64,000 bases of DNA from the NCBI RefSeq assembly GCF_988243305.1, contig NZ_OZ547136.1. One strand, written 5' to 3'. This document shows, piece by piece, positions 16,401-19,332 of the stretch (its first letter is position 1; each line of letters starts with the position of its first letter). The position numbers were made by a program.

Positions 16401-19332
16401 CTACCATGTACCACACGTTAAAAGCCTGATTATCCAGACCTGGCAGCGTCTGAAAGGCTTCGTTCTGCGTGCTGGTAAAGTGATTATCATCGTCAGCATT
16501 TTCCTGAGTGCTTTCAACAGCTTCTCTCTGAGCGGGAAAATCGTCGATAACATCAACGACTCGGCGCTGGCTTCCGTCAGCCGGGTGATCACCCCAGTCT
16601 TCAAGCCGATTGGCGTGCATGAAGATAACTGGCAGGCAACGGTTGGCCTGTTTACAGGCGCAATGGCGAAAGAAGTGGTGGTGGGTACGCTCAACACCCT
16701 CTACACCGCAGAAAATATTCAGGACGAAGAGTTCAATCCGGCGGAATTTAACCTCGGTGAAGAGCTGTTCAGTGCGGTAGATGAAACCTGGCAGAGCCTG
16801 AAAGACACCTTCAGCCTTAGCGTACTGATGAACCCGATTGAAGCGAGCAAAGGCGACGGCGAAATGGGTACCGGGGCGATGGGTGTGATGGATCAGAAAT
16901 TCGGTAGCGCAGCTGCCGCATACAGCTACCTGATTTTCGTCCTGCTGTACGTACCGTGCATCTCGGTGATGGGGGCTATCGCGCGTGAATCAAGCCGTGG
17001 CTGGATGGGCTTCTCCATCCTGTGGGGGCTGAATATCGCTTACTCGCTGGCAACATTGTTCTATCAGGTCGCCAGCTACAGTCAGCACCCAACTTACAGC
17101 CTGGTGTGCATTCTGGCGGTTATCCTGTTTAACATCGTGGTTATCGGTCTGCTGCGCCGCGCGCGTAGCCGGGTGAATATCGAACTGCTGGCAACGCGCA
17201 AATCGGTAAGCAGTTGCTGCGCAGCCAGCACCACCGGTGATTGCCATTAATGGCTTCACTTATTCAGGTACGTGATTTGCTGGCGTTACGGGGCCGTATG
17301 GAAGCGGCCCAGATAAGCCAGACATTGAACACGCCGCAGCCAATGATTAACGCCATGCTGCAACAGCTGGAAAGCATGGGCAAAGCCGTGCGGATTCAGG
17401 AAGAACCTGACGGCTGCCTCTCTGGCAGTTGTAAAAGCTGCCCGGAAGGCAAAGTCTGTCTGCGCGAGTGGTGGGCGCTGCGTTAACCATACTCCATCGC
17501 CTGTTTTGAAAAGCCCGGTATGCGTTTGCATCCGGGCTTTTTTGCGTGCGGCTTTCCATAAAAATGCAATTCTTGCAGCGCGACGTAAGTTCCTCTGAAA
17601 GCGTCTCGCAGGGATGAAAACTGGCTAATGCACAGGTGTGGAGTGGCGCGTAGAGTCGCGGCATTCAAATAACAGGTGAAGGAACGCCATGAGCAAAAAG
17701 CAGAGTTCCACCCCACACGATGCGCTGTTCAAACTCTTTTTACGCCAACCGGAGACGGCACGCGATTTTCTTGCGTTTCATTTACCGGCACCCATTCACG
17801 CGCTCTGTGATATGAAAACCCTCAAGCTGGAGTCGAGCAGCTTTATTGATGACGATCTGCGTGAAAGCTATTCCGACGTGCTGTGGTCGGTGAAAACGGA
17901 ACAAGGACCAGGATACATCTATTGTCTGATTGAACATCAAAGCACCTCAAACAAACTGATCGCATTTCGCATGATGCGTTACGCTATTGCCGCAATGCAA
18001 AATCACCTTGATGCCGGATACAAAACGTTGCCGATAGTGGTGCCATTGTTGTTTTACCACGGTATTGAAAGCCCCTATCCCTATTCGCTGTGTTGGCTGG
18101 ATTGTTTTGCCGATCCCAACCTGGCAAGGCAACTTTATGCCTCTGCATTTCCGCTGATTGATGTCACCGTCATGCCTGATGATGAAATCATGCAGCACCG
18201 ACGTATGGCGCTGCTGGAGTTAATTCAAAAACATATTCGTCAACGCGACCTGATGGGGTTGGTAGAGCAAATGGCCTGCTTATTAAGTAGTGGATACGCT
18301 AATGACAGACAAATCAAAGGGCTGTTTAATTACATCTTGCAAACCGGCGATGCGGTACGTTTTAACGATTTTATCGACGGTGTTGCCGAACGTTCACCGA
18401 AACACAAGGAGAGTTTAATGACTATTGCGGAAAGATTGCGGCAGGAGGGGGAACAATCCAAAGCCTTGCATATAGCAAAAATAATGCTTGAATCCGGAGT
18501 CCCTCTTGCAGACATCATGCGTTTTACCGGGGTGTCAGAAGAAGAGTTGGCTGCGGCGAGTCAGTAAAATTCTGTCTCGCCATTTCAAAAGCCACCTACA
18601 CCCTCTGCTTCAACGCCACCAGCACGTGACGAAACTCGACCGGATGCGAAATAAACGGCGCATGGGCCGCTTTGGCGAAAATGTACGACTCGCTGTGCGG
18701 CCAGAGTTTATCCAGCATCGGCACCACTTTGCGCGGCACCAGACCATCGAGATAACCATACAATCGCAAAAACGGCATGGACACGTTTTGCAGCGGCTGA
18801 CGGAGATCGACCGTTTTCAGGATTTCCAACCCACCATTGAGCACGTCCACCTCCGGCATCGGTAACGCCAGTACGGTTTTCTTCAACGCCCGCGCATCCT
18901 GGCGCGCCGTTTCAGTACCCATGGTTTGTAACGCAAGGAACCGTTCCACTGTACGCTGAAAATCATCACTGAGTTGCTGCTGAAATCCCGCCAGCACGTC
19001 CGGTTTTATCCCCGGCCACTCGTCACGAGCACTAAAACAAGGCGATGACGCCACGGTGACCAGTGCCTGAACACGCTCGGGATGGGTTAACGCAATCTGG
19101 CTTGCCACCAGCCCACCCAGACTCCAGCCTAACCAAATGGCTTTATCAGGTGCCTGTCGCAGCACGGCTTCGGCCATATCAGCAAGCGACAGCGCACCAA
19201 ATCCCCGACTGCGCCCGAAACCGGGCAGATCAACAAGGTGCAGCGTAAAATGCGAGCTAAGTTCCTCGTCAATGCAACGCCACACTTCGGCATTCAGTCC
19301 CCATCCGTGCAGCAGCACAAGATGAACATTCC

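Follow-up and report, generated by a model that had tools for sequence, protein, structure and literature searches.

Four overlapping stop-start junctions in an Escherichia coli chromosome segment: genuine operon junctions, unequal protein output and a recent, polymorphic overlap at feoB/feoC

When the stop codon of one gene overlaps the start codon of the next, does the overlap set the amounts in which the two proteins are made, and does it vouch for the start codon? A 64,000-nt stretch of contig NZ_OZ547136.1 (assembly GCF_988243305.1; "the window" below means this whole stretch) raises the question at four gene pairs, feoB/feoC, ompR/envZ, glgB/glgX and glgC/glgA. A preliminary description made from the sequence had listed these junctions and taken them as support for the chosen start codons and as a sign of tight stoichiometric coupling. 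The window spans nudE to yhhW on an E. coli chromosome and is from a strain other than K-12; its best match was E. coli strain MEI003 (99.5% identity). Two annotations were projected onto it, that of MEI003 made by the Prokaryotic Genome Annotation Pipeline (PGAP) and the curated one of K-12 MG1655.

At all four junctions the stop and start codons of adjacent genes on the same strand do overlap, and the motifs and positions agreed exactly between the sequence, K-12 MG1655 and the PGAP coordinates (Table 1). The reading frames are uninterrupted, with their starts and stops at these sites. In K-12 MG1655, the same overlaps are formed by envZ (3534516-3535868) and ompR (3535865-3536584), by feoB and feoC (which end and begin at 3542728), by glgA and glgC (the former running to 3568033, the latter from 3568033) and by glgX and glgB (the former running to 3571319, the latter from 3571316). 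Curated starts lying elsewhere would have spoken against the junctions; the starts were identical in K-12 MG1655 and in the PGAP annotation of MEI003, and the gene identities agreed as well. Three of the pairs, ompR/envZ, glgB/glgX and glgC/glgA, lie on the minus strand, a point that the preliminary description omitted. The genes belong to the feoABC, ompR-envZ and glgBXCAP operons, and a junction at -1 or -4, too tight to accommodate a promoter or terminator, also argues for transcription into one mRNA. For annotation, a textbook gene structure is confirmed and little is at stake.

We consider it likely (probability about 0.7) that these are genuine, correctly annotated operon junctions at which termination-reinitiation links downstream to upstream translation with an efficiency below one. 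On ending the upstream gene, a ribosome would find itself already at the start codon of the next, and some proportion of these ribosomes would restart. Fresh binding of ribosomes could contribute where a good Shine-Dalgarno sequence is located within the upstream gene. The downstream gene's translation would be tied to that of the upstream gene at an efficiency specific to each pair, and not at a ratio of 1:1.

The downstream protein was the less abundant one in all four pairs, at approximately 0.7 (GlgA), 0.4 (GlgX), 0.3 (FeoC) and 0.03 (EnvZ) times the level of its partner. Synthesis rates were obtained from the column 'Ribosome profiling (Li et al., 2014)' in Dataset EV6 of Mori et al. 2021 (PMC8144880); division of these values by the listed molecular weights gave whole numbers, which we read as copies per generation. 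The values were 181 for feoA, 168 for feoB, 50 for feoC and 43 for envZ, and 448, 180, 910, 622 and 427 for glgB, glgX, glgC, glgA and glgP, respectively. Downstream output relative to upstream output was 0.30 for feoC, 0.40 for glgX and 0.68 for glgA; for pairs 16-18 nt apart in the same operons, it was 0.93 (feoA to feoB), 5.1 (glgX to glgC) and 0.69 (glgA to glgP). Expressed as upstream to downstream, the ratios were 3.4:1 for FeoB:FeoC, 2.5:1 for GlgB:GlgX and 1.5:1 for GlgC:GlgA. For OmpR:EnvZ the ratio is 35:1, from ≈ 3500 OmpR and ≈ 100 EnvZ molecules per cell with a ratio that did not change from medium to medium (Cai and Inouye 2002, reported in PMC543474; the OmpR figure is also given in PMC5175337). 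Protein ratios across conditions were taken from 36 proteome samples (Dataset EV9 of Mori et al. 2021). The median molar ratios were 2.2 for GlgB:GlgX and 1.3 for GlgC:GlgA; FeoB:FeoC was 6-9:1, with FeoC detected in three samples only.

These values do not bear out the tight stoichiometric coupling that the preliminary description had read into the overlaps. Its view, that the overlaps enforce roughly equimolar output of proteins needed in matched amounts, echoes a published hypothesis and would fit the finding that subunits of heteromeric complexes are 4.5-fold enriched among short E. coli overlaps (30.4% versus 6.8%; PMC10666635), the binding of FeoC to the N-terminal domain of FeoB in Klebsiella (known from the literature) and a GlgC:GlgA ratio fairly near 1 (≈ 1.3-1.5). 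We regard it as highly improbable. Of closely spaced E. coli pairs, 69.6% are not complex subunits (PMC10666635), and the ratios for OmpR:EnvZ (35:1), FeoB:FeoC (3.4:1 in synthesis, 6-9:1 in the proteome) and GlgB:GlgX (2.2-2.5:1) are far from equality. The non-overlapping genes feoA and feoB, 16 nt apart, come nearer to 1:1 (181 versus 168) than any overlapping pair. The ratios were also not steadier than those of non-overlapping neighbours in the same operon: the coefficient of variation (CV) over the 36 samples was 0.14 for GlgB:GlgX and 0.10 for GlgC:GlgA, as compared with 0.17 and 0.14 for glg pairs that do not overlap or are not adjacent. Since these CVs are similar, an effect of the overlap is invisible at the proteome level. 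We know of no GlgB-GlgX or GlgC-GlgA complex, and the contact between EnvZ and OmpR is transient; among the four pairs, only FeoB and FeoC have been reported to bind each other stably. Moreover, the feoB/feoC overlap is missing in 15% of E. coli and in every other genus sampled (see below). An overlap should not be read as equal amounts of protein; OmpR and EnvZ, the pair best studied here, differ by ≈ 35:1.

Coupling as such fared better than equimolarity. It has been demonstrated experimentally for ompR/envZ, in the ompR-envZ (ompB) operon of Salmonella typhimurium, which has the same genes and the same ATGA. There, moving the ompR stop codon revealed the coupling: envZ translation dropped at least 10-fold when ompR translation terminated early, and changing the spacing from -4 to +3 made coupling ≈ 30-fold lower (Liljestrom 1988, as cited in PMC3843671 and PMC12548453). 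The experiment was made in Salmonella and not in this E. coli strain, and coupling there yields a low level of EnvZ relative to OmpR, not equality. At the other three junctions we infer reinitiation, which is a reasonable reading of -4 and -1 spacings (PMC6728339, PMC10666635, PMC12548453). When five native -4 pairs of E. coli were tested, coupling was seen in four, the exception being bioB/bioF (PMC6728339), and the most efficient coupling has been placed between -4 and +3 nt (PMC12548453). The pairs described here resemble the E. coli pairs tested in 2019 and 2023 (PMC6728339, PMC10666635) in being same-strand operon genes with an ATGA or TAATG/TGATG junction and a Shine-Dalgarno sequence of varying strength inside the upstream gene. 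They differ in that none of the four was among those tested, and in their ratios of ≈ 1.5:1 to 35:1.

To see how stable the junctions are in evolution, we compared them within and beyond E. coli. Within the species, complete genomes were used; the feoB/feoC region was present in 5,424 of them, and the other junctions were matched against 5,426. For feo and ompR, a FeoC-based genome scan with 10-kb flanks gave 74 species loci from 19 named genera, 57 of which, from 16 named genera, contained the ompR/envZ junction. For glg, loci came from a metagenome scan whose anchor was a GlgA motif lying downstream of the junction; they come without taxonomy, and identity to the E. coli proteins served as a proxy for evolutionary distance. 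The ATGA of ompR/envZ was kept in 56 of the 57 loci, the exception being an indel-ridden assembly, although wobble sites next to it vary (ggt/ggc, aaa/aag), as does codon 2 of envZ (agg/aaa/atg). The spacing of glgB/glgX remained tight in 16 of 16 relatives (59-81% GlgX identity), at -4 in nine loci, -1 in six and +2 in one, and a GGGAGG-like Shine-Dalgarno sequence precedes the glgX start in nearly all relatives. For glgC/glgA, the -1 spacing was found in 17 of 21 close relatives outside E. coli, with the stop alternating between TAA and TGA; more distant relatives have spacers of 46-116 nt. The sequence acaggagcga upstream of glgA is conserved in relatives. These three junctions are fixed in E. 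coli, with ungapped matches in 5425 (ompR/envZ), 5424 (glgB/glgX) and 5425 (glgC/glgA) of the 5426 genomes. The overlaps differ greatly in evolutionary stability: conservation that points to selection on the junction, beyond what coding would require, was seen for ompR/envZ and glgB/glgX, in part for glgC/glgA, and not for feoB/feoC.

Two observations from these samples may be added. The glgC/glgA junction sequence (window 52693-52752) also has matches at 11 places on plasmids of the E. coli collection; an example is an 81-kb plasmid (NZ_CP159701.1), on which 'glycogen/starch synthase' and glgC are annotated (95.6% identity over 45 nt). One locus, from Enterobacter sp. EA-1 (CP025776.1), was set aside on account of odd spacings at the two junctions (-99 and -5) and looks indel-ridden; in this 'complete' genome, feoC and the ompR/envZ junction both appear frameshifted, most likely through indel errors in the assembly.

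The feoB/feoC junction provides the one modestly new item of this analysis, an overlap that is recent and polymorphic in the E. coli lineage. Among the 74 species loci, a single one has the overlap, that of Escherichia sp. MOD1-EC7003 (95-98% identical to the window). Introgression was considered as the source of its allele and rejected: the locus is about as close to the window as that of K-12, so that the strain counts as E. coli sensu lato. In 72 of the 74 loci feoB and feoC are separated by a spacer, which measures 8-12 nt in 69 and typically reads TAAGGAG..ATG. The spacer was seen in E. albertii, E. whittamii, Salmonella, Citrobacter, Enterobacter, Klebsiella, Rahnella and Proteus, and in every other genus sampled.

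E. coli itself has both forms. The overlap allele (...GGTGATTGCCATTAATGGCTTCACTT...) is present in 4,594 of the 5,424 genomes. A spacer allele (...GGCGATTGCCACTAAGGACACGACAATGGCTTCGCTC...; junction sequence CACTAAGGACACGACAATG) is present in 814, including ST95-32, S88 and H105, strains of types that we take to be phylogroup B2, and a spacer allele resembling that of E. whittamii in 16. The three counts sum exactly to 5,424, and the spacer forms together to 830 (≈ 15%); PGAP annotates the E. coli spacer alleles with a 10-nt gap. Junction queries of 60 nt had left 816 genomes without a match, even in sensitive mode, because a short query with an 11-nt gap drops below the E-value limit; these genomes were resolved by a 400-nt query and an allele-specific query. 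Alignment of the two shows that removing 11 nt (GGAYACRRCAA) from the spacer allele, together with a linked synonymous change, CAC>CAT, yields the overlap allele. The spacer occurs in every outgroup, which makes the overlap the derived form; the change went from spacer to overlap.

The 11-nt deletion takes out the AGGA of the Shine-Dalgarno sequence. The pairing energy of feoC is -3.0 kcal/mol in the overlap allele versus -5.7 and -5.8 kcal/mol in the E. coli spacer alleles, and it is weaker than that of any of the 72 species loci with a spacer (median -7.8, weakest -3.6). The ancestral form, as found in other enterobacteria and in the 830 E. coli genomes, corresponds to the small '+10 nt' stop-Shine-Dalgarno-start class of E. 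coli (PMC10666635), whereas the window carries the derived -1 allele that lacks the Shine-Dalgarno sequence. Two strains hint at a more involved history. UPEC957C combines the overlap core with flanking sequence and a FeoC protein like those of ST95, and this mosaic suggests recombination or repeated deletion. In E. coli 2013C-4282, the stretch with feoC and the 3' end of feoB (window 16500-17500) is ≈ 93% identical to the window, as against ≈ 98% for the flanks, which suggests that its E. whittamii-like spacer allele belongs to a block that was imported or is very old. A study of Feo evolution places feoC downstream of feoAB 'with similar intergenic spacing' and reports FeoC to be required by the Feo system of E. 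coli (PMC8749426). The dimorphism is not mentioned in that study, and a literature search on the overlap gave nothing relevant.

After loss of the spacer and the Shine-Dalgarno sequence, feoC would be more dependent on reinitiation than in other enterobacteria. It is possible, although we put this forward tentatively and with more doubt than confidence, that the overlap is a young, E. coli-specific regulatory allele by which feoC relies on ribosomes finishing feoB and the amount of FeoC per FeoB is lowered. Spacings of -8 to +10 nt have been treated as predictive of reinitiation, and those of +11 to +20 nt left unclassified (PMC10666635). The former range takes in the -1 allele as well as the E. 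coli spacer alleles with their 10 nt, so that a functional difference between them is a prediction and not a result. If it holds, overlap and spacer strains would differ in their FeoC:FeoB ratio and, if FeoC shields FeoB from FtsH as in Salmonella, might also differ in FeoB stability and in the control of ferrous-iron uptake. The two forms, with and without the spacer and ribosome-binding site, are a natural allele pair for gauging the effect of an overlap on a small regulatory protein.

The feoB/feoC history bears on a further explanation of all four junctions, namely, that the overlaps are incidental products of small deletions or stop and start shifts in packed operons, and that the downstream genes use their own Shine-Dalgarno sequences. 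A recent 11-nt deletion, still polymorphic (4594 overlap versus 830 spacer genomes), fits this explanation, as do the 46-116-nt glgC/glgA spacers of more distant relatives. Several other points tell against reinitiation as the general explanation. No direct coupling data for feoB/feoC, glgB/glgX or glgC/glgA were found in a literature search. The Shine-Dalgarno pairing energies are strong for glgX (-10.3 kcal/mol, the strongest of 41 window genes), good for glgA (-6.6), moderate for envZ (-6.4) and weak for feoC (-3.0), and with these values glgX and glgA could start independently, as bioF does (PMC6728339). That pair also has a 4-nt overlap in a biosynthetic operon, but bioF initiated de novo in a reporter test; an overlap is thus no proof of coupling. 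For glgX or glgA matters could be alike, and independent initiation is a live alternative there. Local RNA folding at the four junctions was in no case stabler than that of shuffled sequence (z -0.03 to -1.1), and we make no claim that RNA structure blocks independent initiation. The overlapping glg pairs were no steadier in ratio than pairs 17-18 nt apart. Finally, the measurements have their own limits: the 35:1 ratio of OmpR to EnvZ rests on protein counts, so protein turnover may contribute to it; the feo values come from aerobic glucose medium with low feo expression; and small proteins such as FeoC are poorly measured by mass spectrometry.

Even so, we judge it unlikely that the overlaps are incidental. 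The spacings -4 and -1 are by far the commonest among same-strand E. coli genes (PMC10666635), and the enrichment is seen in the window too: of its 30 same-strand neighbour pairs, four are at exactly -1 or -4, and among the 17 pairs spaced -40 to +40 nt these four are more than a uniform spread would give (binomial P = 7 × 10-4). Coupling of ompR/envZ is backed by direct experiment (as cited in PMC3843671 and PMC12548453), its junction is invariant, and glgB/glgX stays tight though its form changes. In the overlap allele, feoC is nearly devoid of a Shine-Dalgarno sequence (-3.0 kcal/mol) and yet is translated, at ≈ 50 copies per generation, and FeoC is needed by the E. coli Feo system (PMC8749426). 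Termination-reinitiation at an efficiency below one accommodates these observations best in our view.

What, then, of the start codons? The preliminary description held that the overlaps support the chosen starts. The starts are right, but the motif alone is weak evidence for them. A start-like codon overlaps the stop codon in 13 of the 41 mapped genes of the window, and most of these open only 2-45 codons; by itself the motif is common. Overlap occurs in ≈ 15% of same-strand pairs in most prokaryote groups (PMC6728339), and the frequency of -1 and -4 pairs in the window is typical; the arrangement is ordinary and already known. A de novo scan of the window for long open frames with an overlapping start that opens at least 60 codons gave 14 hits. 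Besides the four pairs, they comprised the orfA/orfB genes of an IS3-family element (which account for two hits), a decoy lying in frame, an ambiguous case and approximately seven chance open reading frames (ORFs), so that about half were due to chance. The IS3-family pair is a fifth -4 overlap that was not listed in the preliminary description. The decoy is an ATGA at the glgX stop (sequence gagATGAtaaaaaaggagttagtcATGgtt), which opens 438 codons in the frame of glgC. The curated, conserved glgC start lies 21 nt downstream of the decoy ATG, behind AAGGAG, and the arrangement aaggagt..ATG at this start is conserved in relatives. E. coli and a small number of close relatives share the decoy ATG itself; elsewhere the sequence is mostly ATAA, the glgX stop being TAA or TAG. 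An overlap together with a long ORF can thus mislead about a start, and the overlapping motif should be used with caution in annotation.

This decoy shows that an annotation artefact, with the true downstream start elsewhere, could in principle underlie at least one of the overlaps. Other in-frame candidates do exist for feoC (TTG at -9, TTG at +27 and ATG at +48), and ompR and envZ are 'separated' in some Salmonella annotations (PMC3843671). We give this explanation next to no credence. Curated K-12 and PGAP agree. An ATG stands at the projected feoC start in all 74 related loci, with the match running from residue 1; just upstream of this ATG, a Shine-Dalgarno sequence is present in most loci of the spacer type. 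The N-termini of EnvZ, GlgX and GlgA align from residue 1 in closer relatives, and for glgX no alternative start in frame exists in the 84 nt upstream or the 90 nt downstream. The four junctions can be taken as real because the products of the downstream ORFs (78, 450, 657 and 477 codons for feoC, envZ, glgX and glgA, respectively) are known proteins, with N-termini that match those of relatives from residue 1.

Table 1. Positions in the window of the junctions, genes and signals discussed in the text
Feature	Coordinates	Strand	Remarks
feoB/feoC junction, TAATG	17248..17252	+	feoB TAA 17248-17250, feoC ATG 17250-17252, 1-nt overlap; sequence, ORFs, curated K-12, PGAP
feoB coding sequence (CDS), 773 aa	14929..17250	+	annotation-mapped, intact ORF; annotated Fe(2+) transporter FeoB
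feoC CDS, 78 aa	17250..17486	+	full-length match to NCBIfam FeoC equivalog NF011960, E = 6.6e-52
ompR/envZ junction, ATGA (+ strand TCAT)	10404..10407	-	envZ ATG 10407..10405, ompR TGA 10406..10404, 4-nt overlap
ompR CDS, 239 aa	10404..11123	-	PGAP, curated K-12, mapped annotation
envZ CDS, 450 aa	9055..10407	-	ORF, PGAP, curated K-12, mapped annotation
glgB/glgX junction, ATGA (+ strand TCAT)	56006..56009	-	glgX ATG 56009..56007, glgB TGA 56008..56006, 4-nt overlap
glgX Shine-Dalgarno, GGGAGG	56014..56019	-	within glgB 3' end, 4 nt before ATG
glgB CDS, 728 aa	56006..58192	-	ORF, PGAP, curated K-12, mapped annotation
glgX CDS, 657 aa	54036..56009	-	ORF, PGAP, curated K-12, mapped annotation
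glgC/glgA junction, TAATG (+ strand CATTA)	52721..52725	-	glgC TAA 52725..52723, glgA ATG 52723..52721, nt 52723 shared
glgA Shine-Dalgarno, AGGAG	52729..52733	-	within glgC 3' end
glgC CDS, 431 aa	52723..54018	-	curated start 54018; PGAP, curated K-12, mapped annotation, sequence
glgA CDS, 477 aa	51290..52723	-	ORF, PGAP, curated K-12, mapped annotation
IS3-family orfA stop/orfB ATG, ATGA	45423..45426	-	fifth -4 overlap; ORFs, sequence, NCBIfam IS3 transposase NF033516 for both ORFs
Decoy ATGA at glgX stop	54036..54039	-	ATG 54039..54037 in frame with glgC, 7 codons upstream of curated start; not the annotated start

The IS3-family element lies in a chaperone-usher fimbrial operon between glpD and glgP that is absent from K-12. 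Here, the usher gene (41478-46720) is interrupted by an IS4-family element within 43386-45967 (transposase ORF 43437-44654, plus strand), which is itself interrupted by the IS3-family element (orfA 45423-45749 and orfB 44536-45426, both on the minus strand). In the closest strain, MEI003, the usher gene is intact. The usher stop codon, TAA (41478-41480, minus strand), forms a TAATG whose ATG would add 10 codons to the next fimbrial subunit (MNILQKFILL-MFRS...). Either codon may be the true start of this subunit: the extending ATG has GGAG 8 nt upstream, and the annotated start at 41448 is without a Shine-Dalgarno sequence. In the annotation, a fimbrial subunit gene overlaps the chaperone gene that follows it by 35 nt (40383-40417, minus strand), with GGAG 6 nt upstream of the annotated start; an in-frame ATG at 40390 would cut this overlap to 8 nt (ATGATTAA).

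Elsewhere in the window, the 3' end of malQ (22443-22448, minus strand) has a tandem TAG TAG and is one codon shorter than in the reference strain. We considered malQ as a broken gene and rejected this, the one-residue difference at the C-terminus not making it a pseudogene. The convergent genes rtcR (plus strand) and glpR (minus strand) overlap by 19 nt at their 3' ends (34316-34334). In the window glpR is an intact ORF; in K-12 MG1655 it is marked as a pseudogene.

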